Source: an uncultured Pelolinea sp. (GTDB lineage Bacteria > Chloroflexota > Anaerolineae > Anaerolineales > Anaerolineaceae). From it: a stretch of 56,849 nt of DNA. Position 1 is the stretch's first letter; each line of letters opens with the position of its first letter. Both the position numbers and the translations under genes were made by a program. The notes beneath the pieces are model-generated. The model saw only the letters and a list, made by a program, of their open reading frames with translations. It had not been told where the DNA came from and ran no database searches. Location: assembly GCA_964386805.1 (NCBI GenBank), contig CAYLUJ010000001.1:1-56849 (forward strand), given 5' to 3'. Positions 27,975-42,208 of this stretch are shown here, in pieces.

Positions 27975-29237
27975 TTATGCTCGAGTATGATAATTTCCCT
28001 GCACAATCCATTTATAGGTGGTTAATTCTTGTAATCCCATCGGTCCACGAGCATGCACCCGTTGGGTCGAGATGGCAACCTCAGCTCCTAATCCTAGTTC
28101 TGCTCCATCCGTAAAGCGGGTGCTGGCATTGACATATACAACTGCCGAATCCACCTCCCGCAAAAAACGACTTGCATGGTCTTCATTTTCTGTAAGAATC
28201 CCGTCTGAATGGGCAGTACTGTGCTGTTTAATAAAAGAAATTGCTGTTGAAAGATCGGGAACCGCACAAGCATTTAAATTCAAAGAAAGCCATTCACGAT
28301 CATAATCGCCTTCTTTCATCACTTTGAGCGTTTCACCGGAAGTCAGAGAACAGTTTTCTAATAATTCTGCGGGAAGATGCATGATCACTTTTTCTTGCTG
28401 CATTCTTTTTAATAATGCGGGTAAAAATGTAGAAATAATTTTTTCATGGATCAATACCGTATCGAGCGCATTGCACACAGTTGGACGTTGTACTTTCGCA
28501 TTGACAATCACTTCCAATGCTTTTTTCTGATCGGCAGATTCATCCACGAATAAATGGCATATCCCGATCCCACCGGTGATGACCGGAATGCGGCTGTTTT
28601 CACGGCAGTAGGTGTGCAGGGCTGCTCCTCCACGCGGAATGAGCATGTCTACATACGCATGCATAGTCATCAGTTCATCAACGAATCTGCGATCAGGATC
28701 ATCTAGAAATTGCACGGACTCCTTCGGAATACCCACACTCTGCAAAGCTGTATGGATACAGTCAACCAGAATTGCATTGGTTTGCAGAGTTTCTTTTCCT
28801 CCTCGTAGGATGACCGCATTCCCTGATTTAATTGCCAGGGCTGCTACATCAATGGTTACATTCGGGCGAGATTCATAGATTACCGCCAGTAACCCCAGAG
28901 GGACACGCTGCTTATGGACATGCAGCCCATTGGGTAATTCGTGTTCATCAAAGGTTTGATCGAGTGGATCCGGCAAACTGGCTACGGACCGCGCTCCTTC
29001 TGCTATGTTTTCAATTTGTTTGGAAGTTAATGTCAATCTCTCAAGTATGGCAACCGATAGACCCTGCAAAATTCCCTCCTGAACGTCAATTTGATTCTTG
29101 CGCAGAATTTCATTTTTTCGGTTATCTAATATTTCAGCCAACATCAGAAGCGCAGTTATCCTTTGCTGTGCAGTCATAAAAGGTAAATTTTGAGAAGCTT
29201 CCTTCGCCTGCTTACAAAGATCAAGTACCGTTTTCAT
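27975..29237 (-). CDS. proA: Gamma-glutamyl phosphate reductase
   Basis: 420-aa aldehyde-dehydrogenase-fold protein with a typical ProA sequence (VIYESRPNVT...ILRGGKE...VCNA). ATGA overlap with proB. Confidence 0.95.
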   Translation of the reverse strand: MKTVLDLCKQAKEASQNLPFMTAQQRITALLMLAEILDNRKNEILRKNQIDVQEGILQGLSVAILERLTLTSKQIENIAEGARSVASLPDPLDQTFDEHELPNGLHVHKQRVPLGLLAVIYESRPNVTIDVAALAIKSGNAVILRGGKETLQTNAILVDCIHTALQSVGIPKESVQFLDDPDRRFVDELMTMHAYVDMLIPRGGAALHTYCRENSRIPVITGGIGICHLFVDESADQKKALEVIVNAKVQRPTVCNALDTVLIHEKIISTFLPALLKRMQQEKVIMHLPAELLENCSLTSGETLKVMKEGDYDREWLSLNLNACAVPDLSTAISFIKQHSTAHSDGILTENEDHASRFLREVDSAVVYVNASTRFTDGAELGLGAEVAISTQRVHARGPMGLQELTTYKWIVQGNYHTRA

Positions 29238-30349
29238 GTTCCCCTGCCCTGCAATAGAACCAAGTCATCGTGATGGATCACCTCGTCCGCATAAACATAT
29301 CCCAGACGCTGTTCAATCTGATCGGTATGCAACCCTTTGATCTGATCAATTTCATTGGAGGCATATGCGCAACGTCCGAGCGCACACGGTTTCCCATCTA
29401 CACTAAAAACAAAGATGGCATCTCCGCGTTGAAATTCCCCGCGTACATCGGTTACTCCAACCGGCAGCAAACTGCCTCCTTTCAGTAACGCTTTCTGCGC
29501 TCCAATGTCGATCTCAATTCCGCACCCTTTCATAGCACTTGCCAGAAGAAAGCGTTTGCGACTCTCCAATGCATCGACTGATGGATAGATCCAGGTACCA
29601 GGTTTCTCTCCCTTCACTATCTGAAGTAATACATTTTCCCCACCCTTTGCAATGGCAACGGTGGTTCCACTATGGCGGGCAATTTCAGCCGCCTCAACTT
29701 TGGTAAGCATGCCGCCCGTGCCAAGCCCTGAGGTAGATCCACCGACTGCATCCCATACTGTTTGGGGAATTTCCATTGAATGAATTTCTCGGATAAGCTG
29801 CGCTTTTCCTCCAGTCGGATCTCCATCATAAATTCCATCAATGTCGGTAAGTAAAACCAATAAATCCGCTTCAAGCATGGTTGCCACCAAAGCGGAAAGA
29901 TTATCATTATCCCCAATGCCAATTTCATCAGTAGCCACTGTGTCGTTTTCATTAATAATGGGTAAAATCTGGTGTCCTAATAATGATTCCAGCGTTCCAC
30001 GTGCATTAATATAGCTTTTACGATTGGTAATATTCGTGCGGGTCAACAATATCTGCCCTACCCTGACCCCATACATGGAAAAGACCTGTTCATAGATCGC
30101 CATCAAGCGCGGCTGCCCAACCGCTGCGAGCATCTGCTTTGTCGGGATATGTTTCACCAGACTGGGATAAGCCAGTACTTCTTTCCCTGCAATAATTGCT
30201 CCCGATGAAACAAGAACAACCTGACATTTTTCATCCTGGATCGCACGGATCTGTCTGGCAATTTCCACAATACGTGGATATTGAATGGCGCGCGTACCTT
30301 GTGTAAGTGTGGATGTGCCAATTTTCACCACCATACGTCGATACTGCAT
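29234..30349 (-). CDS. proB: Glutamate 5-kinase with C-terminal PUA domain
   Basis: VVKIGTSTLT...VSSGA...NDTVA...GDNDNLSA...GTGGM, plus a PUA-like C-terminus. Confidence 0.95.
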   Translation of the reverse strand: MQYRRMVVKIGTSTLTQGTRAIQYPRIVEIARQIRAIQDEKCQVVLVSSGAIIAGKEVLAYPSLVKHIPTKQMLAAVGQPRLMAIYEQVFSMYGVRVGQILLTRTNITNRKSYINARGTLESLLGHQILPIINENDTVATDEIGIGDNDNLSALVATMLEADLLVLLTDIDGIYDGDPTGGKAQLIREIHSMEIPQTVWDAVGGSTSGLGTGGMLTKVEAAEIARHSGTTVAIAKGGENVLLQIVKGEKPGTWIYPSVDALESRKRFLLASAMKGCGIEIDIGAQKALLKGGSLLPVGVTDVRGEFQRGDAIFVFSVDGKPCALGRCAYASNEIDQIKGLHTDQIEQRLGYVYADEVIHHDDLVLLQGRGT

Positions 30350-30574
30350 ATCGTCCTCCCGATAATTCCCCCAAGTATATCAAATGCAGCCCCGATCTGG
30401 AATCATTGATCGCGAAACTATCTGTTTTCCTGTATACTTATTTCTTTGTTGTTCGGCAACAGAATGATCCTTTAAAATTATTTATTACGAAAGTAAAAAA
30501 GCCATCCAATTTTTTGGATGGCTTTTAAGGCGGCATTGGTCGAATTTTGTTTTATTTTAGGTTGCCTCTTTTAG

Positions 30575-30697
30575 TAAAAAGAAACCGGTTTTTTATGACC
30601 GGTTTCGCTATTCGCTCCCTGAGATTGTTGCAAAGGGATAAGTTACTACCCTCCCAAAGCGACCAAGTTCAAACCGCAGTTCAACGCTTCCAATACT
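30575..30697 (-). ncRNA. Unclassified structured-RNA candidate, copy 1 (paralog of 40137-40267), ending in an intrinsic terminator
   Basis: Minus strand: AGTATTGG...TTGGTCGCTTTGGGAGGGTA-loop-TATCCCTTTG...AGGGAGCGAATAGCGAAACCGGTCA, then terminator AAACCGGT-(8 nt)-ACCGGTTT + CTTTTT (30576-30605). Shares long identical blocks with copy 2. Confidence 0.5.
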
Positions 30698-30815
30698 CTT
30701 CTTTGACTTTAATAATCTTTTATCATTATTTTCAGAATTGGTTGTTTATCAAAAATAACAACAGGGATGGTATTTCTGCGTATCCCTGTTCGGTTCGTTA
30801 TTTCAAAAAAATTCT

Positions 30816-31691
30816 TTATTTTTTCTCTTCCCCCTTATCAGTATTCATTTGCGTGTAAGAGACCATTTCTTTTTCAGAGTTCACGGCAAATTCGAGGGCA
30901 GCTTGAGCGCGGGAAACGATCTTCTCAACCGATACTGCATCGATGGGGAAACTGGCTATACCTGCATATACCGAAGCATTTACTTGCTGAGCAGCGCCCT
31001 GGACAACCCGCCCTGCTGCAATCTTTGCTTCTTCATCGGATGTATCGGGCAATATCATACCTAAGGTTTCTTGATCAAAACGCGATACAACATCTAATGT
31101 TCGCAGAATTTTTTTACAAACCTTGGCAGTGGCTTCCATTAATTCTTCAGCACGTTCCGGATGACCCTCACTGACAAGGTTTTTATAGTTGAACACGCGC
31201 ATCATCATTACACTAACTGGCTTTTTTGTTCTTCTGCTGCGGATAAATTCTTCACCCAGTTTCTGCTGGAATAATTTCCATTTTAACAAACCATACGCGT
31301 CATGCAGGGTAAGTTCCTCAATGAGAACATTATTGGAGACATATTGATTAATAAAATGTGCGATTTGGGCATGCACACTTTTTGAAAGAATGGTGGAGAT
31401 TAGCAGAGCAGCAGCAAATACACCTATCCGGATCAATAACTGCATCATTTGTTCTTGAAAAGTATATTGGACGTATCCATACGCTAGAATGCTAACAACC
31501 AATGCAATCCAATCCATCCAACGATTGAACCTAAAGATTGTCAGAACAACGACAAAAGCCAGCAAGGAAAGACCCAGAAAAACAGTCGTTTCATCCACAA
31601 ACACGATCATTCCTGCGCTAATGATCAGCCCCACCGTTAATAGCACGACATACAGCAATAATCTGTTTTGAGAAATATTTTTATTAATCAT
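30816..31691 (-). CDS. PelD-like membrane protein: 4 TM segments plus a degenerate GGDEF domain retaining an RxxD I-site
   Basis: GGDEF-fold landmarks are present (DAYGLL..., ...SEGHPERAEE..., VYAGIASFP, ...RAQAALEFA). The active site reads DQETL (31062-31076) instead of GG[DE]EF, and the metal-binding Asp is lost (MMMRVF). RTLD (31092-31103) lies exactly 5 residues upstream, as in canonical I-sites. Confidence 0.7.
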   Translation of the reverse strand: MINKNISQNRLLLYVVLLTVGLIISAGMIVFVDETTVFLGLSLLAFVVVLTIFRFNRWMDWIALVVSILAYGYVQYTFQEQMMQLLIRIGVFAAALLISTILSKSVHAQIAHFINQYVSNNVLIEELTLHDAYGLLKWKLFQQKLGEEFIRSRRTKKPVSVMMMRVFNYKNLVSEGHPERAEELMEATAKVCKKILRTLDVVSRFDQETLGMILPDTSDEEAKIAAGRVVQGAAQQVNASVYAGIASFPIDAVSVEKIVSRAQAALEFAVNSEKEMVSYTQMNTDKGEEKK

Positions 31692-33870
31692 GCTTCCTCG
31701 CTTTCCGCTTTTTCACTATTTCGTCAATTACTTTTCCAACAATCACTCCAACTGTAACCACAGCAAAAACGATGCCAATCCATAGAGCAAGATTGTTTTC
31801 TTCTTTTTGAGGTTGCACCGGCAGTTCTTCTGCCGCAGGTACCAATTCTTCCATGTTTTGAATCAACGCAGATGAAATAGAGCCTTCTGCACGGGTAAGA
31901 GCAAGATCGCCATATAAGTTTTTAATATTAGTGGAATCCATTAATGCATCAATCGCCCACGCTATCCCTTTATCTGTAGTGCCAGTGGCAATCAATACAG
32001 GATATCCTTCATTGATCAATGCCTCTAGGTAACCAATATCTGCATTAATTGTATTTGTCTGAACAATATCAGTCTGGGTAACAGGATTATTGGTACCCTC
32101 TTCAAAAGGTTGCGGAAGATGGTCGTTCAGTTTAACAATCTCGCTGTTTTGCGTTGGTATTCCGATCAACATGAAATGGGTTGGTTTCTCAGAAAGCGCA
32201 GCCAATTCAGCGGGTGTATAAACCTGCAGGTCAATCCCATCGCTGTTGAGATAATGCCCTAGAAATTCACTGAGTTTGATCACTAATTCATTGACGGTCT
32301 GATTGGATTCATCGGGAAGAATCACACCGAAATCAGAGAGATCAGAACTACCAATGAATGCATACGGGAATTCGTTGATTGAGAGTACTTCAGTGGAAGG
32401 TCCTAAGGGCACCGTCAGTTCCGTATCCGCATAAACCACAATCCAGGCAGCCGTTGTATTGTCATCCAGACAGTCAAACCGATCATCCTGGTAAGCATCC
32501 GGCAGGTTGATGTTACTGACGACCGTAATCCTGTTATCTCCAAAATCAAATAGCCGTGCTGGGAGTACGAGGTCTGCCCAGGCATCATTGGCATTTTCGC
32601 TGGTCAAGGATACCGTTCCAGCAGGTGTACCATTTACTTGGATAGTCAGATAAGATTCTTCCAAATTTGCAAAATCTGTATGAGCAAAATGCAATCGCAT
32701 GGTCACATCACCGATGACTTTCCAAGAAGTTGCGAACGGCAAAGCATAGCTGATGGATTGTTCAGAGGTTCCCCAGGCGGTGACATCCTTATATTCATAC
32801 TTTTCAAGGGTAAAAGTGGAGGTGAATGTCTCCTGGGTTGAAACAGAGTCAGGCACCTGGTTTATCAACGCCAGGTTATCGGGGAGTTGCTCCAAGATGG
32901 AATCCCGGGTGAGTGCCCTGGCTGCTTCAACAATCGCCGAATCGGTATCCCCGGTCACAACCAGAATAGATTGTTTCGCATCTGCAAAGAATTGCCCACT
33001 CCATAGAATCCCTGTATTTCCGGGGTAAGCACTGCCATTCTTTTCCTTCAGCTTACCATTTTCCCAAACCCAGGGAGCTTGTAGGTCATTGAGAATTGCC
33101 AGTTGATCCGCACGCCCGACAAGAATGATGTTTCCTTCCAAACTGCCTGGATTCGCCATGGCATCTGTTTCAGTTGCGAAGTTAAGATTAACCGTCCGCC
33201 AGCTTGCAAATTGACCAAGTTTCGCACTAACCAGTGCAGCCGCATTGATTTCAGCAGACGTTGGAATATCCGGCAGAACAAAGGTTACCCTATTCTCTAG
33301 AATTCCGGAATTACTGACAAAGGGAAGGGGAAATTTATTAAGTACCGGGGCTGCATCCTTCATTCGATACTGAAATGTGAAATATGAACTGTCATGAACG
33401 GTAAACCACAATAAATCCTCATCCAAATTCAAGCAATCGAAGCCTTCATATCCCAGATATAAAACCAAGCGCACACGGTTATACCCCTCAACCCACAATT
33501 CGCTTGGAATTTCAACTTTCAATTCCCCAAGGTCGCTATTGGCACTGGTGAGCCCCGTGCTGGCAATTCGCGTTCCATTGACTTCAACAGCTATAGATGA
33601 TTTTTCGCTGAGAGCTTTAGCGTGGCTGAACACCAGTGTCAGAGTACTGCCGGTCTGTGGTTCCCAGGCAGAAGGCCACTGAAAACCATACTCTTTGATA
33701 GTATTGATCCCTTTAAAAGAATCATCACTGGATAGAATCCCCAGATCTTGAAACGTATAGGTATTGTCCTGGTCTTGAACAATTTCAGTGGGAGCAGCCG
33801 CAAAGCTGCATAAAAATGTCAAGAGGATCAAGACACTTTTTATGAACTTTCCATTCATTTTATTTTTCAT
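31684..33870 (-). CDS. BcsB-like periplasmic/extracytoplasmic synthase partner with signal peptide and C-terminal TM anchor
   Basis: 728 aa. N-terminal signal (KSVLILLTFLCSFAAAP). Duplicated module pattern (LTLVFSHAKALSEKSSIAVEVNGTRIAS / MRLHFAHTDFANLEESYLTIQVNGTPAGTV) as in cellulose synthase subunit B. C-terminal TM plus KKRKARK tail. Confidence 0.6.
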   Translation of the reverse strand: MKNKMNGKFIKSVLILLTFLCSFAAAPTEIVQDQDNTYTFQDLGILSSDDSFKGINTIKEYGFQWPSAWEPQTGSTLTLVFSHAKALSEKSSIAVEVNGTRIASTGLTSANSDLGELKVEIPSELWVEGYNRVRLVLYLGYEGFDCLNLDEDLLWFTVHDSSYFTFQYRMKDAAPVLNKFPLPFVSNSGILENRVTFVLPDIPTSAEINAAALVSAKLGQFASWRTVNLNFATETDAMANPGSLEGNIILVGRADQLAILNDLQAPWVWENGKLKEKNGSAYPGNTGILWSGQFFADAKQSILVVTGDTDSAIVEAARALTRDSILEQLPDNLALINQVPDSVSTQETFTSTFTLEKYEYKDVTAWGTSEQSISYALPFATSWKVIGDVTMRLHFAHTDFANLEESYLTIQVNGTPAGTVSLTSENANDAWADLVLPARLFDFGDNRITVVSNINLPDAYQDDRFDCLDDNTTAAWIVVYADTELTVPLGPSTEVLSINEFPYAFIGSSDLSDFGVILPDESNQTVNELVIKLSEFLGHYLNSDGIDLQVYTPAELAALSEKPTHFMLIGIPTQNSEIVKLNDHLPQPFEEGTNNPVTQTDIVQTNTINADIGYLEALINEGYPVLIATGTTDKGIAWAIDALMDSTNIKNLYGDLALTRAEGSISSALIQNMEELVPAAEELPVQPQKEENNLALWIGIVFAVVTVGVIVGKVIDEIVKKRKARKHD

Positions 33871-33880
33871 GCTTCACTCC

Positions 33881-35590
33881 TTAGTTCCCGGCTTTAGCAT
33901 TATCGTTAATTGTAAATAATCTCCATGGTAATGGAGAGGGAAACTCATATTTAAATGTTGTCCATGTTTCAAAACCTTCATAAATACCTGGGTAATATTT
34001 CAATACCTGTGATCTCCCGCGCGCATCAAATGAAGGATACGGAACCAAAATCTGATCAGCTTTTCCGATAGGGTTTCTCAAGATGTCAAAAAAGTCCATA
34101 TCGGTGGTCATTACGAGATTTTTGGGGTGGTCAACCATAAGTGCCAACGACATGGATATGGAATGATCAACGATTGTAATCGTATCATCCAGTTGTGCGT
34201 TGAGATAATCAGCAATCATCTGCATCTCCTCCAGTGAATCATTCTCATACGATACCGATTGTTGTTCACCGGCGATAATCCAGGCTAGCAGTATTTTTTG
34301 TGGCATGGGAGCTTCGATAAGATCCCACTTTTTACTTACCTGACTGACGATTGGGAATATCAATAACTCTACCAGTAATAAATTTACTACCAAACGGGCC
34401 CATTTCTTTTCCAATGAGGAATATACCGCTCCCATGACAATAATTCCTCCCGGGATCAGCCAAATAAAATAGCGGCTGAAAGCCGGCAGATAACCCCGAT
34501 AACCGATCAGGAAAGTGAATAAAATAATAGACCAACCCAGCATGACAAAATCGAAATCAATCCAGCGTTTTTTTATAAAAATTAGCAACAGTAAAACAAT
34601 GGTTGCAACAGCTAAAAGAGGTCCAACAAAAGTGATTTCTGAAAACAGCAGTCTAAAAGAACCACTGATGGAATTCATAGCATAGTACCAGAGATGATCA
34701 GGTCCAAAGGTTTGAGCAGTATCAGGGGTATTGGATGTCGCTCCGGGGCCGGTCAGAAAGTAAACAGGGTTGCCCATGATCGTCCAGTTGAGGAAAACCC
34801 AAAACAGGAAACCATAAGCTGGGGGCACAAGGTAAGATAAAAGATCAGCCTCCAATTTTTCCGGCGATGTTTTTCCTTTTCCGAAAAGCCAGCTCCAGCA
34901 AATACAGGCTGCCATGACCGCCGTCCAAGCAAGCGCTTCATAACGGCAGTATACTGCCAACCAGGCGCCGATGCCTGCCATCATGATTCCAGAATTTTTT
35001 CGCTCCTGATGCCAGGTTAGATACCCATTAAAAGAGAACAGTAGAAATCCGATGAAGGGAGTCTCCGACATGCCCAGAGCTGCATTATGCAGAATAAGTG
35101 GTTGCAGACCAAATAAAACCATCCAGACAATGCGCCATCCGCTTTCTACTTTAAAGCGTTTCAAAACATTGTTTAGCTGCACCATCGTGAACCCGGCATA
35201 GATAGCACTCATCAACGTGCCACTCAATATTTCCAAACGAAATGGCCGCAAGAGGATATTAAAAGGAATATCAGATACTGCTGGAAGCGGAGGCCAAATA
35301 AATCCGATCGCCGAAAGGTGTGGATCGCGTCCAAAGACAGCAGAAAAAGCTTGAGAAACCCGCGACAATCCTTCATAATCCGAGATATCGTAGATCAGAG
35401 TTCCATAAATCCCAATGATTGCGTAAAAAAAGAAAGCAATAAGAAAGATATGTGTTGAAGGATGCTTCATTAAATGAATAAAGCTTTCTCGAATATGCAG
35501 TTTCCTTTTCGTCTCAGGGGCATATTCGGGTGGTTTTGATGCAATGGACGGTGCAGGATTAACGCTATTGAACATGGCTGCCATCCACAT
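33881..35590 (-). CDS. Polytopic GT-C-fold-like (ArnT/PMT-like) membrane protein with C-terminal soluble domain
   Basis: About 12 TM segments, an acidic first loop (YDISDYEG) and a ~170-aa C-terminal non-membrane domain. The start is ambiguous (Met codons at 35590, 35584, 35575) and overlaps the synthase stop at 35565. Confidence 0.45.
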   Translation of the reverse strand: MWMAAMFNSVNPAPSIASKPPEYAPETKRKLHIRESFIHLMKHPSTHIFLIAFFFYAIIGIYGTLIYDISDYEGLSRVSQAFSAVFGRDPHLSAIGFIWPPLPAVSDIPFNILLRPFRLEILSGTLMSAIYAGFTMVQLNNVLKRFKVESGWRIVWMVLFGLQPLILHNAALGMSETPFIGFLLFSFNGYLTWHQERKNSGIMMAGIGAWLAVYCRYEALAWTAVMAACICWSWLFGKGKTSPEKLEADLLSYLVPPAYGFLFWVFLNWTIMGNPVYFLTGPGATSNTPDTAQTFGPDHLWYYAMNSISGSFRLLFSEITFVGPLLAVATIVLLLLIFIKKRWIDFDFVMLGWSIILFTFLIGYRGYLPAFSRYFIWLIPGGIIVMGAVYSSLEKKWARLVVNLLLVELLIFPIVSQVSKKWDLIEAPMPQKILLAWIIAGEQQSVSYENDSLEEMQMIADYLNAQLDDTITIVDHSISMSLALMVDHPKNLVMTTDMDFFDILRNPIGKADQILVPYPSFDARGRSQVLKYYPGIYEGFETWTTFKYEFPSPLPWRLFTINDNAKAGN

Positions 35591-38500
35591 GTGATTCTGA
35601 TTCCTTTTCAAGTTCCATACCAAAACCCTGGCTAAAACCATGAATGGTCTTTTCCCAATAATGTGGTTTTGTTATCAACTGTAAAAAACCTTTCCAGGCA
35701 CCAATACTCATTAAACCCCAATAAATTGGACTTAGCAGCGCAAAACGCACGTTATCGTAATGCCTGCGGCGCATGGCTCCGGCTATGTTCATATAAGTAA
35801 ACACAAAATTTCCAAGATAAAGGCTAAGCGAACTCAAATAAAAAATAAAACCGGGGAATGTCTCTTGTATAAATGCCCATTTCGTCAAATACCAAACCGT
35901 TGTAATCGTCCATAATATCGGATTGACCAAGGCAGCAAAGAATGTGCCACCTGTAACGAATTGAAAACTGATGAATCCCTTGAATCCCACTTCTTTCAGT
36001 AATTCCGCGGGGTTGCGCATGTGCACCAGCCAAGTTTGGATATATCCTTTTATCCAACGAGAACGCTGCCGCAACCAGTTATTGAGCCGGCTGTTGGCTT
36101 CTTCATACGTTGTCGAATCGATGGTGCGCGTATGGAAACCGCGTTTATAGAGTCGCATGCCCAGGTCAGCATCTTCGGTAACATTGTGAGGATCCCAGGC
36201 ACCCACCTCAACCAATGCGCGGCGTTTGAAATGATTGGAAGTACCACCCAGGGGAATGGGGGCATCAGAAGCATCCAACCCGGGCAGAAACAGGTCAAAC
36301 CACATCGAGTATTCTGAGGTAAACCATTGTGTTAGCAGGTTTTGGCGGCGGTTGTAATAGTTCAATTTTGCCTGGATGCATACCACATTAGGACTCGATT
36401 TCCGAAATGCAACAACTGCTTTTTTAAGCTGATCAGGGTCCGGGCGGTCTTCTGCATCGAAAATAACAACATACTCACCACGCGCGTGGATAAGACCATA
36501 GTTGCATGCCTTGGGTTTTGTTTTCGGTAATGAACCAGGCACAATTGTTGCGCGAAAATGAGGGGGAAGCTTTAAATCATAAAAACTCTGAATTGTTTCT
36601 TTATCTTCTGCTTCCAGTAAAATTTTTATATCTAATTTCGTACTCGGATAATCCAGGTGAGTCAATGACTTCATAAGTTCCGGTAGAACGCCTGCTTCGT
36701 TAAATACAGGAATTAACAGGGTGTATACAGGTAAATCTCTTGGATCAAGAGCATCCATTTCGGCTTGTGATACAGGGACTTCACAATCGTGGTTCATGGC
36801 ATTATAAACAAGATAGAATTTGTAAGCAGAAAAACCAATATAAAAAATCGTGATCAATTCATTGGCAATGATCGCAAAAGATGTAAAGTTCAAGACCATT
36901 AGTACTAAGGAAAGAACCAACAAAGCTGAGAAGAAAATGGTCTGCCCTGTACTCAACACATGGAACGCAGATTCTCTGGGGGAGCGAGTCAATAAATTGG
37001 ATGTGCTAATAGTGGTGTAATCACCATGATAAATTTGTTCCAAAGCTTTTTCAAGATTGGCTTCTGAAGTGACCACCGGGTGAATTTTTTTGCCGGTTAT
37101 TTCATGCGCTTTCTCAATGCCCTTTTCATCAAAGGGATCCACGATTGCCAACGTCAGATCAGTTTTCGTCACTTTAATGGGAAGAATTCCAAACTCGCGT
37201 TCTATTTCAGAATCGATTAACCGGGCAGTATCCTCCTGTATTGATGTCTTTTCCAGATCAATAAAACGTAATTTAGCCTGTTGGGCTAAAACTTCATACA
37301 TCTGATCTTCTTGAATATATTGTTTGATTAACAATGCCTGCCCCAGACGTACCCCTGTTTTCTTCGACAATTCCAATGCTTCATTTAACTGACGGCGTGT
37401 AATATAACTGTTTTCCAATAAATATGTACCAATGTTTTTCCGACCCAAAGTTCTCGCAATTGCATCTTCCAGGTCCGCTCGCATGACAAGCACTGGTTGA
37501 ATAGGAAGGGGAAAGTGTTCCTTTAAAAAATCAAGGTTTTGAGTATGTAATGGGTCAGCAAAGGCCATAATAATTTGTTGATTTTCTCTTCGAACAGGCA
37601 ACATACAATATCGATTGGCAGCCGCAAGATCGATCATCCCTGCCACGCCCAGATTCACCGGATCACGATAGATTGTCTTGGTAATCTTATTTCCAAGTCC
37701 ATCAAATTGCTCTGCCTGTTCTTCGATCAGGTTAATATTGTAAACAGGGACAGAAAAAACAGACGCCAGAATTTGATTTGCTTGACGTGCATCATAATAA
37801 CCCGCCTGGGTGAAAGCCCTATCAAAGGGAAGAGCGCCCGCATCCATCAGCTGGATCATCTGATAAGCTTGTGATTGGGTCAGATAATCAGAGTGAATTA
37901 ATTTTTGGATATATCCATGTGCTTCATCAGACACTTCATGACGTTCCGTTCCCCAACTTTGTTCAATAATCGCCCGGAGAACCTTTTTCGGAGTAATGAC
38001 CGGCACAACCTGCATCCTGAGCTTCTTCTTTAATTCATGGAATCCTTTTCCATTAAAGGGGTCAGAAGTAGCAATCCAGACATGATCATCTTTTAAGATT
38101 AATGGCAGTAGTTGATATTTTTCAGCCAGTTCTTTTGGAAATTCATTGAGAAGTTCTTGCTGAAGATTGGCATGTTCCAGGGAAACAAATGGAAGACTCG
38201 TTTGAATACTTCGAGAAATAGCCAAATCAATGTCGTCCAAATAACCCCGTTCTAGCAGTAATTCACTCAACCGCTGATCCTCAATGTCATCAGTACCTAC
38301 CACTTCTTGAAGCTGCTCAACAGAGATAAGGCCTAAGGTAAGCAGGGTTTCTTTCAAAGAAACGAACCGGGAGGCTGCTATTTTAGGATTCTCAAATGGA
38401 TAGAACATGTCCATCCAAATTTGCAGTTTCTGGCGGTCAATTAAATAAGGTTTTACTCTTTTATGAGTTAAAGCTTGAACCAATTTGACTTTTTCTTGTG

Positions 38501-39527
38501 AGATATCATTCCCCGCTAGCGAGATTGTGCTGTCAGTTCCATCGAATGCAATAATTTTTAACTGTCTGGCTATTCCTGATGGGATAGTTTCCACCCATTT
38601 TTCTTGGGGTTTTCGTTCAGCATCCAGGATTGGTATCTTGGTAAGCAGCGATTCAACCTCAAGTAACATTTCATGCGTGATGATTTTCAGATCCAAAAGT
38701 GCTGCGATAAGATCGGTGCGATATTGGCTACTGTAAATGTTTGCCCTCTGTAAATCAGACCTATCGAGTGAAAAACGCTCTTGAAAAATCGTAACCTTAT
38801 CTTCATTTGTGATTTGATGCGGTTTTTCACCCTCAAGGTAGATTGTGCGGAAAATCTTTCTCCATTGTTTTTCAGCGCACAACACTGGCTGTATATCAAA
38901 TGAAAAAAATGATTGAAGACTTGAAATATCATCGGGTAATGCGGAAGCGTTGCAACCCAGATATAGCCGATTTCCAATCCACCACAAGGGAATTACTTGA
39001 TGTCTTTCTGCTTCTTTTAATGGAATGAGCGTAGCCAGAACTTTTTCAATGACAACCATATTGAGATCAATATGGGGAATCTGATGTTGAACACCCAAGA
39101 TTTCAAGATGGATGTTCTCTTCTGAATTTAAATTCTGCAAACTTCGTTGCTCTTCTTCTGCAGACTGCTGCTCTCCACTCAACTCCGCTATTGCTTTTTC
39201 CCCGCTGTGTAATACATCTTGGATTGTTGATGCATTTACCTTCGGAAGGATGAATTTTTTACTTTCGTATAATTGGTTTTGGAAAGTTTGAATTTGCGCA
39301 TATGTTAATAAATATGGCAATACAGGTTTTTTAATGAATCTTTCGATTTCTTCTGTTTTGTCAAAGTTGATCTCCGCAGTGCCAATACAGTAATTATCAT
39401 TTTCCGTCCACAAAGGAACCACATCGAATTTTCTTGAAATATCCTCTGGAATTCCCGGATATGCATTCGTTGGTTTAAATTGTGTCGAAAGCTGTTGATA
39501 AAACCTGTTTTTAATACTCATCATCAA
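35565..39527 (-). CDS. Giant (1320-aa) processive family-2 glycosyltransferase with an N-terminal array of GspE-N/MshEN-type domains
   Basis: GT2 core is aa ~933-1165: LIPVFNE, DAED (1024-1027), TED (1117-1119), QRSRW (1154-1158), flanked by TM segments. Aa 1-850 carry about six repeats of the T2SS-E N-terminal pattern (hydrophobic-PL...hydrophobic stretch-DP...), two of which have full bipartite MshEN motifs. No ATPase Walker motifs. Confidence 0.85.
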   Translation of the reverse strand: MMMSIKNRFYQQLSTQFKPTNAYPGIPEDISRKFDVVPLWTENDNYCIGTAEINFDKTEEIERFIKKPVLPYLLTYAQIQTFQNQLYESKKFILPKVNASTIQDVLHSGEKAIAELSGEQQSAEEEQRSLQNLNSEENIHLEILGVQHQIPHIDLNMVVIEKVLATLIPLKEAERHQVIPLWWIGNRLYLGCNASALPDDISSLQSFFSFDIQPVLCAEKQWRKIFRTIYLEGEKPHQITNEDKVTIFQERFSLDRSDLQRANIYSSQYRTDLIAALLDLKIITHEMLLEVESLLTKIPILDAERKPQEKWVETIPSGIARQLKIIAFDGTDSTISLAGNDISQEKVKLVQALTHKRVKPYLIDRQKLQIWMDMFYPFENPKIAASRFVSLKETLLTLGLISVEQLQEVVGTDDIEDQRLSELLLERGYLDDIDLAISRSIQTSLPFVSLEHANLQQELLNEFPKELAEKYQLLPLILKDDHVWIATSDPFNGKGFHELKKKLRMQVVPVITPKKVLRAIIEQSWGTERHEVSDEAHGYIQKLIHSDYLTQSQAYQMIQLMDAGALPFDRAFTQAGYYDARQANQILASVFSVPVYNINLIEEQAEQFDGLGNKITKTIYRDPVNLGVAGMIDLAAANRYCMLPVRRENQQIIMAFADPLHTQNLDFLKEHFPLPIQPVLVMRADLEDAIARTLGRKNIGTYLLENSYITRRQLNEALELSKKTGVRLGQALLIKQYIQEDQMYEVLAQQAKLRFIDLEKTSIQEDTARLIDSEIEREFGILPIKVTKTDLTLAIVDPFDEKGIEKAHEITGKKIHPVVTSEANLEKALEQIYHGDYTTISTSNLLTRSPRESAFHVLSTGQTIFFSALLVLSLVLMVLNFTSFAIIANELITIFYIGFSAYKFYLVYNAMNHDCEVPVSQAEMDALDPRDLPVYTLLIPVFNEAGVLPELMKSLTHLDYPSTKLDIKILLEAEDKETIQSFYDLKLPPHFRATIVPGSLPKTKPKACNYGLIHARGEYVVIFDAEDRPDPDQLKKAVVAFRKSSPNVVCIQAKLNYYNRRQNLLTQWFTSEYSMWFDLFLPGLDASDAPIPLGGTSNHFKRRALVEVGAWDPHNVTEDADLGMRLYKRGFHTRTIDSTTYEEANSRLNNWLRQRSRWIKGYIQTWLVHMRNPAELLKEVGFKGFISFQFVTGGTFFAALVNPILWTITTVWYLTKWAFIQETFPGFIFYLSSLSLYLGNFVFTYMNIAGAMRRRHYDNVRFALLSPIYWGLMSIGAWKGFLQLITKPHYWEKTIHGFSQGFGMELEKESESHVDGSHVQ

Positions 39528-39792
39528 TATTATTAGTATCTTCGTTTTTTAAATCTTCCAAATTATTTCCAATTTCATTTTTGACAGGGAGCGTATTCTT
39601 ATTTTTGCGTAAGGAAAATAAAATACTAATATCTGAAATAGCTAAAATAATCGAAAAAACTCCGATTAGAATAATCGGAATGGTAAAATATCCTATCCAC
39701 ATGCCGAGAAATAATGTCATCATTATTCCCAGAGTAACAAGAACGCGGAATATAACTACAGTCATTAACCATGTGCGATTTTTCAGGTTCAT
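39511..39792 (-). CDS. Small 2-TM membrane protein with acidic tail; first gene of the EPS operon
   Basis: 93-aa ORF whose 3' end overlaps the synthase start by 17 nt. No clear SD. Confidence 0.5.
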   Translation of the reverse strand: MNLKNRTWLMTVVIFRVLVTLGIMMTLFLGMWIGYFTIPIILIGVFSIILAISDISILFSLRKNKNTLPVKNEIGNNLEDLKNEDTNNIDDEY

Positions 39793-40136
39793 TTTTTAAT
39801 CTCGAATTCAGCAATCTCTAGGGTTTCCTTTTTTATAAATACTATGCCAATGACTAATTATCAAAACAATACTTATAAAAAAAGATTGGAATTGTTTTCC
39901 TTACTCCTTCTCTATAATTTATATGAACGGAACGGATTATTTTTTTGTTTTCAGAAGGAAATCATTCCATTTATTCCTTCTAATTATACATTTTTAGAAT
40001 AAAAATTGTATTTTCAAGTGAGCGCAATCCTGCTTTCTTTCAAGAGACAGTCGTATTGAATTTTGTTCATTTCGTTATAAAATGGCATGAGATTGGTCCA
40101 AGTTATGATACAGTTCGCTTTTTTTCTCCTCTTAAC

Positions 40137-40267
40137 AGAAAAAACCGGCCATAGACTGACCGGTTTCGCTATTGGCTCCCTAAAATTCGTTGAGGTAATG
40201 TCCTATGAATATTACAATACCCTCAAAGCGACCAATTAAGAATTTCTAGTTCGCAGCCTTCAATACT
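40137..40267 (-). ncRNA. Unclassified structured-RNA candidate, copy 2 (paralog of 30575-30697), ending in an intrinsic terminator
   Basis: Minus strand: AGTATTGA...TTGGTCGCTTTGAGGGTATTGT-loop-ACATTACCTC...AGGGAGCCAATAGCGAAACCGGTCA, then terminator AACCGGTCA-(4 nt)-TGGCCGGTT + TTTTTC. It must have its own promoter because the upstream gene is on the other strand. Confidence 0.5.
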
Positions 40268-40372
40268 ATACATACAGTGGCATACTTAGTATACAGAATA
40301 AAATAAAAATTACAAGATTAGGAAATAAACCAAGAAAGGGTACAATTATGTTCACAAAAAGGAGGTTTTAGC

Positions 40373-41245
40373 ATGTCCCTCACCCCTGCACAGAGAGATC
40401 GTATTCTCATTTTACAAAAAGAAGAACTGAACGGACATTATACCTATTTGAAATTGGCTAACGCAATCAAAGATGAGCATAATGCTCAGATATTGAACCG
40501 TATTGCCCAGGAAGAACTAAAACATTATCAGATCTGGAAGCACTACACAGAAGCCGAAACGATCCCCAAGAAACTGCGCATCCGATTTTACTACTGGTTA
40601 TCGAAGCTATTGGGATTGACATTTGGAATCAAATTAATGGAACTAGGTGAGGAAAAAGCTCAGGAACAGTATGCCAAATTGATTGATCTCATCCCCGAAG
40701 CCAAGATGATTCTAGCAGAAGAAGAAAAACACGAAGACGAGCTTTTAGAAATGCTGGATGAAGAAAGTCTGAAATATGCCGGTTCGGTTGTACTTGGCTT
40801 GAATGATGCTCTGGTTGAATTAACCGGTGCGCTAGCGGGATTAACCTTTGCTTTTCAAAATACCCAAGTGATTGCGCTTGCAGGTTTAATAACCGGCATT
40901 TCCGCTGCTTTTTCGATGGCTGCCTCCGAATATCTCTCTTCGAAATCAGAAGAGGGTGAAAAATCACCATTAAAATCAGCTATTTACACTGGTATTGCAT
41001 ATATCATCACTGTCACCATTCTTATTTTGCCCTACTTGATCGCAAAGAACTATTTGGTTAGTTTGGGATGGACGATCGCCAATGCAATTCTGGTAATCGC
41101 TATTTTTAATTTTTATATCTCTGTGGCAAAAGGCTTCAACTTTAAGAAACGCTTTTTTGAAATGTCGCTGATCAGTTTGGGAGTAGCCCTCTTTTCATTT
41201 GTGGTTGGCAATATTATTCGTAAAGTTTTCGGAATTAATGTCTAA
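40373..41245 (+). CDS. VIT1/CCC1-family Fe/Mn transporter with N-terminal ferritin-like domain
   Basis: N-terminal diiron-like EELKH / EEEKHEDEL helices, then a VIT core (GLNDALVELTGALAG...AASEYLS...) with 5 TM. SD AAAGGAGG. Confidence 0.85.
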   Translation: MSLTPAQRDRILILQKEELNGHYTYLKLANAIKDEHNAQILNRIAQEELKHYQIWKHYTEAETIPKKLRIRFYYWLSKLLGLTFGIKLMELGEEKAQEQYAKLIDLIPEAKMILAEEEKHEDELLEMLDEESLKYAGSVVLGLNDALVELTGALAGLTFAFQNTQVIALAGLITGISAAFSMAASEYLSSKSEEGEKSPLKSAIYTGIAYIITVTILILPYLIAKNYLVSLGWTIANAILVIAIFNFYISVAKGFNFKKRFFEMSLISLGVALFSFVVGNIIRKVFGINV

Positions 41246-41275
41246 TAAAATCATTAAGTAGAGAAAGGAATTTCA

Positions 41276-42208
41276 ATGGATCCCATTAATAAAAAACGAA
41301 TCATTATTTTTTTAGTCTGTGCTTTTTGCATTTCTTGGATTGCCGCTCTGGTGATCTACCTGACCGGTGGTTTAACCGACAGCCCTGTTGTTATTGAAAG
41401 CAGCGGAATTACATTAGCCTATATTCTGCTGGCAAGTGCTTATATGTGGGGGCCAGCCATCGCGAATATTCTAACGCGCGCTATCACCAAAGAAGGGAAC
41501 AATAACCTGCTACTGAAATTGGATTTTCGCGCTCATTGGCGCTATGTACTGGCAGCCTGGGTGGGAACACCTATTCTGGTACTGCTCGGTACCGGACTAT
41601 TTTTTGTGCTGTTTCCGAGTTACTTCGATACCGGTTTATCCTTCCTTTCCTCACAACTGGCAGCGGCTGGAGGTAATTCAAGCACCTCCTTTGTGTACCA
41701 ATTCCTTATTATGCAAATTGGATATGCCATTCTCGTCTCTCCCATCCTTAATATGATCAGCACTTTTGGGGAAGAATTTGGCTGGCGAGGATATCTGCTG
41801 CCCAAACTTCTACCGCTTGGAAAAAGACAAGCCATTCTTCTAACAGGGATAATTTGGGGTGTCTGGCACTGGCCAGTCATTGTTATGGGCTACAACTACG
41901 GTTTTGATTACCCTGGCTATCCATGGTTAGGACCACTTGCAATGGTCTGGTTTACCGTGCTTGTTGGAATTTTCATTGCATGGGTTTCAATGAAATCGGA
42001 AAGTGTTTGGCCGGCTGTTATCACGCATGGAGCGTTGAATGGTATCGCATCCATTGGAGTCTTATTCCTCGTAAAAAATCCACCAGCTTTATTAGGACCA
42101 TATCCTACTGGTGTAATTGGAGTTTTTCCTTTTTTAATTGTAGGAATCTTGATATTAATGCTTGCTTTTTCTAAAGAAAAACCGGAAACGGTTATTACTG
42201 CAAAATAA
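41276..42208 (+). CDS. CPBP-family intramembrane glutamic endopeptidase (CAAX protease/Abi family)
   Basis: Motifs GEEFGWRGYL, WGVWH and THGALNG in a polytopic protein. Confidence 0.85.
   Translation: MDPINKKRIIIFLVCAFCISWIAALVIYLTGGLTDSPVVIESSGITLAYILLASAYMWGPAIANILTRAITKEGNNNLLLKLDFRAHWRYVLAAWVGTPILVLLGTGLFFVLFPSYFDTGLSFLSSQLAAAGGNSSTSFVYQFLIMQIGYAILVSPILNMISTFGEEFGWRGYLLPKLLPLGKRQAILLTGIIWGVWHWPVIVMGYNYGFDYPGYPWLGPLAMVWFTVLVGIFIAWVSMKSESVWPAVITHGALNGIASIGVLFLVKNPPALLGPYPTGVIGVFPFLIVGILILMLAFSKEKPETVITAK

Follow-up and report, generated by a model that had tools for sequence, protein, structure and literature searches.

Divergent relatives of the c-di-GMP-II riboswitch at an exopolysaccharide locus of an uncultured Pelolinea species

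Is the structured RNA candidate upstream of an exopolysaccharide (EPS) operon in an uncultured Pelolinea species (Anaerolineaceae, Chloroflexota) a new class of regulatory RNA, or a known one that escapes annotation? The DNA analyzed here, all 56,849 nucleotides (nt) of a stretch of contig CAYLUJ010000001.1 (assembly GCA_964386805.1), is referred to as the window. A preliminary description, made from the sequence alone, had picked out two similar stretches on the minus strand, here designated copy 1 and copy 2, the latter upstream of the operon, and had stated that they match no riboswitch or small RNA class. We find that the element is real and functional-looking, and that it is a divergent member of the known clan of cyclic di-GMP (c-di-GMP) riboswitches of the c-di-GMP-II type rather than a new class. 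What is new is limited to its sub-threshold divergence, an intermediate state of its predicted binding site, and a genomic rearrangement next to it.

Two paralogous copies and their family

Copy 2 (40270-40150) and copy 1 (30700-30588) are paralogues, with clear relatedness over 40273-40135 versus 30704-30573 and 78% mean column identity across ~155 nt. They have the same letters in AGTATTG, TTGGTCGCTTTG, AGGGAGC, and AATAGCGAAACCGGTCA, while the hairpin between conserved blocks differs in length, being GAGGGTA...TACCTC in copy 2 and shorter in copy 1; among relatives this stem varies in both length and sequence, bearing out its earlier reading as a variable-length stem. The plus-strand gene at higher coordinates of copy 2 (40373-41245) belongs to the VIT1 family, and the first open reading frame (ORF) downstream begins at 39792, 345 nt from 40137. 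All that the preliminary description had said of the sequence, from the shared blocks and hairpin to the terminators, promoter, and distance to the operon, holds on the minus strand. A covariance model (R1) built from eight orthologues and paralogues picks exactly two sites in the window, copy 2 with 124.7 bits (E ~1e-31) and copy 1 with 101.6 bits (E ~1e-24). The next best score, with filters off over positions 29000-41500, is 11.9 bits, so the similarity of the copies is not due to chance.

Two similar copies within 10 kb could also be expected of a dispersed repeat or miniature inverted-repeat transposable element (MITE). This explanation, like that of chance similarity, has next to no probability, as it is refuted by covarying base pairs and positional orthology, and only two copies occur in the 56.8 kb. 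No terminal repeats are found within the conserved unit of the two copies.

To which family does the element belong? Compared with Rfam at gathering thresholds, the whole window gives no match, neither to c-di-GMP-II (RF01786, 53.5 bits) nor to c-di-GMP-II-GAG (RF03169, 40 bits). A local search at E-value thresholds (551 nt; one lower-scoring match from the same clan hidden) aligns both copies end to end with RF01786, copy 2 over model positions 1-84 with 43.0 bits (E = 4.3e-8) and copy 1 over the entire model with 38.7 bits (E = 7.3e-7). For a search space of the whole window instead of 551 nt, the E values would still be ~1e-5 to 1e-4 by an arithmetic estimate.

Orthologues provide the bridge. 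Syntenic loci were found through the 1,320-amino-acid (aa) protein encoded in the operon, not through the motif, and the element is present at both corresponding positions. The closest homologues of this protein (66-97% identity) are from Anaerolineaceae metagenome-assembled genomes, as are the syntenic loci, which rules out a Firmicute as host, and orthologues of the element occupy matching positions in genomes with 66-85% protein identity; copy 1 has orthologues at the same position in loci L128, L131, and L132. The upstream copy of L131 passes Rfam as RF01786 with 54.5 bits, and L128 (upstream and downstream copies), L130, and L133 pass as RF03169 with 41-44 bits. On the sequence evidence, the window copies are orthologous to annotated members of clan CL00127 but themselves score slightly below either threshold. 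The preliminary description had itself tied novelty to the outcome of an Rfam search; that search recovers a known family, whose curated thresholds the orthologues pass, and the claim of novelty fails on its own terms. By homology and fold together, we regard membership in the family as very likely.

The family extends well beyond these loci. A scan of genome contigs with a pattern that represents both pseudoknot blocks finds at least 120 stretches that share the core, nearly all of them Anaerolineae/Chloroflexota among the matches listed. When 15 listed loci were tested in Rfam, 12 matched RF03169 (40-52 bits, gathering score 40) and one RF01786 (54.2 bits). The pattern fixes the pseudoknot letters; the sample derived from it is unfit for pseudoknot covariation or for the ratio of the GAA to GAG states discussed below, and the synteny-derived set was used for the pseudoknot. 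A full-text search of the literature found no paper that mentions both c-di-GMP-II and Chloroflexi. In 10 loci (L017, L022, L027, L031, L037, L041, L054, L066, L072, and L100), two or three aptamers lie within a few kb, some ~100 nt apart; such neighbors in Anaerolineae may be tandem arrangements.

Fold, terminator, and predicted switch

For comparison with a known structure we used 3Q3Z, the crystal structure of the c-di-GMP-II riboswitch from Clostridium acetobutylicum. The RF01786 alignment accounts for each block singled out earlier. GAAGGC...GA together with GGGAGCC makes up a kink-turn with the C-stem GGC/GCC, CUAGAAAUUC pairs with GAAUUUUAG as P2, loop strand UUGGUCGC and 3' strand AGCGAAACCGG form the pseudoknot, and UUGA pairs with UCA(G) at the inner end of P1, which in copy 1 is reduced to 3 bp. 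A kink-turn is likewise contained in the 3Q3Z structure of the c-di-GMP-II class (PMC4316175). The variable hairpin, P3, appears in the Rfam alignment as an insertion after the pseudoknot strand, of 38 nt in copy 2 and 30 nt in copy 1.

Covariation supports this fold. Among the 116 listed Anaerolineae matches, 92.5% of cells are paired, versus 73.4% in shuffled alignments and no more than 45% with the partners slid, in an alignment fitted to the model, in which the pseudoknot cannot be judged. Changes on both sides of the pair are seen in 9 of 9 pairs of P2, 5 of 5 of P1, and 2 of 3 of the C-stem (16 of 17 pairs outside the pseudoknot). For the 13 orthologues and paralogues chosen by protein synteny, 93.3% of cells are paired, with 100% for the pseudoknot. 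Against the parent consensus GGGCAC/GUGC-AA-CC, the pseudoknot reads GGUCGC/GCGA-AA-CC, so that both partners have changed in two pairs, one from G-C to U-A and the other from A-U to G-C. Positions that the search pattern left free are also conserved among the listed matches, the kink-turn GA in 114 and 116 of 116 and the equivalent of A61 in 114 of 116. P1, kink-turn, P2, and their covariation, together with a pseudoknot around two bulged adenines, are all found as in RF01786. The minimum free energy (MFE) z-scores of the leaders are unremarkable (-1.3 and -1.2), as expected for a pseudoknotted aptamer, and were not used as evidence. The initial proposal of a structured cis-regulatory RNA is supported.

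How could such an RNA act? In copy 2, a terminator scan finds GAAACCGGTCA-GTCTA-TGGCCGGTTTT followed by TTCTG (40167-40141, 11 pairs), and in copy 1 it finds a terminator at 30606-30581, confirming that each copy ends in a good intrinsic terminator; both are present in the MFE and centroid folds, which are ligand-free. The terminator 5' arm of copy 2 (40167-40157) overlaps the pseudoknot 3' strand (40169-40162) and the P1 3' strand (40159-40155), so that aptamer sequence is part of the expression platform. The pairing of GGTCGC with AGCG-AA-ACC that had been described as mutually exclusive with the terminator is indeed so. As an antiterminator it needs one revision, in that it excludes the terminator not as an add-on but as the aptamer's own ligand-binding pseudoknot. 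Occupation of the terminator 5' arm by a ligand-stabilized pseudoknot and P1 implies an ON switch. The ON direction has been reported for c-di-GMP-II riboswitches (PMC7583470), and the same direction is predicted here.

Each element is preceded, at a distance of 20-25 nt, by a promoter-like site. That of copy 2, TTGTAA-16-TATACT, which had been suggested as the element's own promoter, is recovered by a consensus scan, and both hexamers are kept in eight orthologous loci (alignment A5). A terminator scan of positions 40135-39793 found none in the window between copy 2 and the operon; with no terminator before 39792, read-through from the riboswitch would enter the operon.

The genes downstream bear on the ligand. 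MshEN is a c-di-GMP-binding domain, and the operon (Table 1) encodes a family 2 glycosyltransferase (GT2) with five MshEN modules, a BcsB-like protein, and a degenerate GGDEF protein, all of which point to c-di-GMP. The last of these has RFDQET in place of the signature, which makes a role as a c-di-GMP receptor, or no activity at all, more likely than cyclase function. For a single synthase, five MshEN modules, each putatively c-di-GMP binding, are unusually many. A motif search of the window ORFs for active GGDEF, EAL, and PilZ proteins found none and is uninformative.

Across the family, a same-strand ORF of ≥150 aa starts within 300 nt of 84 of 103 listed elements (median 82 nt), versus 38 of 99 in the control orientation. 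Genes downstream of the listed loci encode OmpR-type response regulators, beta-helix, cadherin, Ig, and PKD surface proteins, proteases, a sugar transferase, GGDEF proteins, and TadE, so that the regulon of the Anaerolineae element looks like known c-di-GMP-II regulons. This placement close upstream of genes, and the ribosome-binding site and gene that directly follow copy 2 in most orthologous loci, speak against an independent small RNA, or a sponge for c-di-GMP, working in trans rather than as the leader of a gene. Such an RNA would account for the element's own promoter and strong terminator, and for the single-stranded spacer and second terminator that follow copy 1 ahead of proBA, which has a promoter-like box of its own, but we consider it very unlikely.

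In the mechanism that we propose, transcription would begin at the copy 2 promoter (40315-40288), and the RNA would fold into P1, the kink-turn, P2, and the variable hairpin. On binding of the ligand, most likely c-di-GMP, GGUCGC (40233-40228) would pair with GCGA..CC (40169-40162) round two bulged adenines and P1 would close. Pseudoknot and P1 would take nucleotides of the terminator 5' arm (40167-40157), no terminator would form, and the polymerase would continue into the operon for the 93-aa, MshEN-GT2, BcsB-like, and degenerate GGDEF proteins, adding to the output of a second promoter-like box, TGTATAAT, nearer to the operon. With no ligand the terminator would form, releasing a ~145-nt transcript. 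We judge this complete mechanism, a transcriptional ON riboswitch of the c-di-GMP-II family before the EPS operon, to be reasonably probable.

Table 1. Positions of the elements and genes discussed in the text
Feature	Position	Strand	Basis or remark
Aptamer, copy 2	40150..40270	-	RF01786 local match; R1 site
P1, copy 2	40264-40260 with 40159-40155	-	5 bp
Kink-turn C-stem, copy 2	40258-40256 with 40176-40174	-	
Kink-turn GA, copy 2	40252-40251	-	
P2, copy 2	40249-40240 with 40188-40180	-	
Pseudoknot 5' strand GGUCGC, P2 loop	40228..40233	-	pairs with 40169-40166 and 40163-40162
Variable hairpin P3, GAGGGUA...UACCUC, 3' of pseudoknot strand	40192..40224	-	MFE fold; insert columns in alignment A3
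Pseudoknot 3' strand GCGA-AA-CC	40162..40169	-	RF01786 alignment; bulged AA (40165-40164) presumably A69/A70 of 3Q3Z
Promoter-like site, copy 2	40288..40315	-	-35 TTGTAA 40315-40310, 16-nt spacer, -10 TATACT 40293-40288; consensus scan; putative start
Intrinsic terminator, copy 2	40135..40167	-	11-bp stem, 5-nt loop, U-tract; scan; conserved in orthologues
TGTATAAT box, promoter-like, between riboswitch and operon	39983..39990	-	~200 nt before 93-aa gene
Five-gene operon	30816..39792	-	synteny kept in L127-L133
93-aa membrane protein, first operon gene	starts 39792	-	
1,320-aa protein, 5 tandem MshEN N-terminal to GT2 glycosyltransferase	35565-39527	-	
586-aa operon protein		-	no Pfam hit
728-aa BcsB-like operon protein		-	
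291-aa degenerate GGDEF protein	30816-31691	-	RFDQET for signature
Aptamer, copy 1	30588..30700	-	RF01786 local match; R1 site
Pseudoknot strands, copy 1	30664-30659 and 30608-30601	-	
Promoter-like site, copy 1, TTGATA-16-AATAAT	30725..30752	-	consensus scan
Terminator, copy 1, GAAACCGGT...ACCGGTTTC then TTTTT	30581..30606	-	scan; folds
Second conserved terminator hairpin, before proBA	30497..30526	-	~55 nt past copy 1 terminator; 12 pairs, one compensatory
TGATATACT box, extended -10 type	30374..30382	-	conserved, with highly conserved short leader, just upstream of proB
DUF4215/TSP_3 gene of relatives	L128:7168-9510; L130:7038-9425; L131:356-2356; L132:75-2063; L133:7269-9422		window equivalent 39793-40135

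Binding site, ligand, and a lost gene

To relate the copies to the binding pocket, contact positions were mapped through the Rfam alignment, a mapping of our own. The contacts of c-di-GMP in 3Q3Z are A13, A14, U37, G39, U60, A61, C68, A69, A70, C71, C72, G73, and A74 (PMC7288161). On this mapping the window copies retain 9 of 10 mapped contacts, the equivalents of A13, U37, G39, A61, A69, A70, C71, C72, and G73; the pair A14-U60 varies within the family. The RF03169 consensus GCGAGACC has a G at the A69 position, and both window copies and the orthologues that keep the motif read GCGAAACC, so that the apparent binding-site nucleotide of RF03169 is missing from the window copies. Judging from the consensus lines, the name "GAG" appears to denote positions 67-69, at which the parent would be GCA, the named variants GAG and GCG, and the window lineage GAA. 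So read, the window copies would combine the pseudoknot of the GAG variant with the parent adenines, and this mixed state explains why orthologues flip between RF01786 and RF03169.

Several observations weigh against the proposed c-di-GMP riboswitch of the EPS operon, and those on the RNA itself come first. Both window copies score below the gathering values of RF01786 and RF03169. The C68 equivalent is A, as in c-di-GMP-II-GAG, with its partner compensating from G to U. To our knowledge, the ligand of c-di-GMP-II-GAG has never been established, and it has been suggested to be other than c-di-GMP. The same fold and switch could respond to another cyclic dinucleotide or a related guanine nucleotide, as hypothesized for the orphan GAG and GCG variants, an explanation that would suit the GAG-type pseudoknot GGUCGC/GCGA, the several orthologues that score best on RF03169, and the altered C68-equivalent contact. 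However, the A69 equivalent stays A, whereas it is G in the GAG consensus and, to go by the name, in GCG; the C68 change is compensated by its partner, which preserves the helix; the gene context is c-di-GMP specific (MshEN, degenerate GGDEF, BcsB-like); and the family regulon is like known c-di-GMP-II regulons. We therefore hold another ligand to be unlikely and c-di-GMP, which was among the candidates proposed at the outset, to be the likely one.

The remaining points concern what the riboswitch controls. That copy 2 lies upstream of the EPS operon is correct by coordinates, but the TGTATAAT box intervenes, and most relatives have a different gene directly next. In five relatives (L128 and L130-L133), the upstream riboswitch directly precedes a gene for a secreted 660- to 795-aa DUF4215/TSP_3 protein that is missing in the window. 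There, a ribosome-binding site and this gene follow within ~30 nt of the riboswitch, with the 93-aa gene after it, and a terminator hairpin of the gene's own is seen in the four of the five loci that were aligned. The gene is also absent from the sister strains L121-L125 and from L127 and L129; as the nearest outgroups carry it, it was apparently lost more than once, independently. The TGTATAAT box has a GTATAAT core that is invariant in 7 of 7 aligned loci, and a preceding T in 6 of 7 (alignment A7), including loci where the box follows the terminator of the extra gene. Very probably, the EPS operon has its own promoter at this box, and the contribution of the riboswitch to operon expression may then be small.

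Signs of decay add to these points. All five sister strains L121-L125 (97% protein identity) read GCGAACCC and not GCGAAACC, the bulged adenine equivalent to 40164 having become C, and are in effect natural mutants of the predicted binding site. The L129 orthologue (L129:9294-9422) has a damaged kink-turn 3' side and C-stem (AGAGAACC) and scores 74 bits, versus >100 for the other upstream copies. Its pseudoknot is kept, with two pairs as G-U (GGUUGU) in the model alignment; alternatively, with 2 nt inserted in the 3' strand, the partner could be ACGA-AA-CC. The GCGAACCC allele and the L129 C-stem suggest that constraint has been relaxed in lineages that lost the gene. A further observation is that L127:9491-9616, and the equivalent region of L129, hold a degenerate second riboswitch-like element, UUGGUCGU ... 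AAUAGCGAAAGCG, of 25.5 bits, right after the TGTATAAT box. No such relic was found in the EPS leader of the window, with filters off.

Might copy 2 then be a vestige, its cognate DUF4215/TSP_3 gene deleted, that yields only a short terminated transcript, with the EPS operon expressed from the TGTATAAT promoter? Besides the absence of the gene, the conserved internal box, the decay in L129, and the A-to-C change in the sister strains would fit. Yet, unlike L129 and L121-L125, copy 2 of the window is intact in its conserved nucleotides, both kink-turn helices, pseudoknot, promoter hexamers, and terminator; riboswitches were kept after independent gene losses in at least three lineages; and no terminator separates copy 2 from the operon. 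We find a vestige improbable, and the ON riboswitch before the EPS operon remains our preferred interpretation.

Copy 1, related systems, and significance

Copy 1 sits after the operon's own terminator, and L128, L131, and L132 carry TGATACAAT in the region of its promoter-like site. Between its terminator and the hairpin at 30526-30497 there is a conserved, apparently single-stranded spacer, CUUCGACnAnnGCCGCC. The conserved TGATATACT box suggests transcription of proBA from a separate promoter that does not depend on copy 1. Copy 1 may regulate transcription that runs on toward proBA, or it may give rise to a small RNA of its own under control of a ligand. In the latter case, a transcript extending past the first terminator would expose CUUCGACnAnnGCCGCC and end at the second, an arrangement that resembles a riboswitch-gated small RNA. 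Two other assignments were rejected. As a T-box of proBA, copy 1 has no meaningful Rfam match, only terminator-level noise, and as a proline leader-peptide attenuator of proBA it has no proline-rich small ORF. One bolder proposal is that the GAA state, GCGAAACC, is an evolutionary intermediate between c-di-GMP-II and GAG, so that the orphan variants either still sense c-di-GMP or have shifted in specificity, and that copy 1 is a ligand-gated small RNA rather than a leader; taken as a whole, it is speculative and has little probability.

How do the window copies compare with known systems? With RF01786 they share P1, the kink-turn (GGC/3-nt bulge/GA with GGAGCC), P2, and the loop-tail pseudoknot with two bulged adenines, as well as the predicted ON logic, an aptamer 3' end common to the expression platform, and an association with surface, EPS, and adhesion genes. 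They differ in the two swapped pseudoknot pairs, the inserted hairpin of 30-38 nt, and a short P1 (5 bp in copy 2), and their host is of the Anaerolineae, whereas the parent is from Clostridia. The orphan RF03169 of the same clan has the GGUCGC/GCGA pseudoknot and a hairpin inserted at the same place, but the window copies have GCGAAACC in contrast to GCGAGACC, with the apparently name-giving nucleotide in the parent state, and score below 40 bits. The ydaJKLMN operon of Bacillus subtilis is a c-di-GMP-activated EPS operon with the degenerate-GGDEF receptor YdaK. Like the window operon, it unites EPS glycosyltransferase genes with a degenerate GGDEF protein; its control is at the protein level, with no known riboswitch, whereas the window has a putative RNA sensor and MshEN on the synthase.

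In this AT-rich Anaerolineae lineage, both copies go unannotated at the curated Rfam thresholds, and homology together with synteny recovers them. The intermediate binding-site state, in a c-di-GMP gene context, is a clue to what the orphan variants sense. If the proposed mechanism is true, matrix production in a poorly studied phylum would be under layered control by c-di-GMP, at the level of both RNA and protein.

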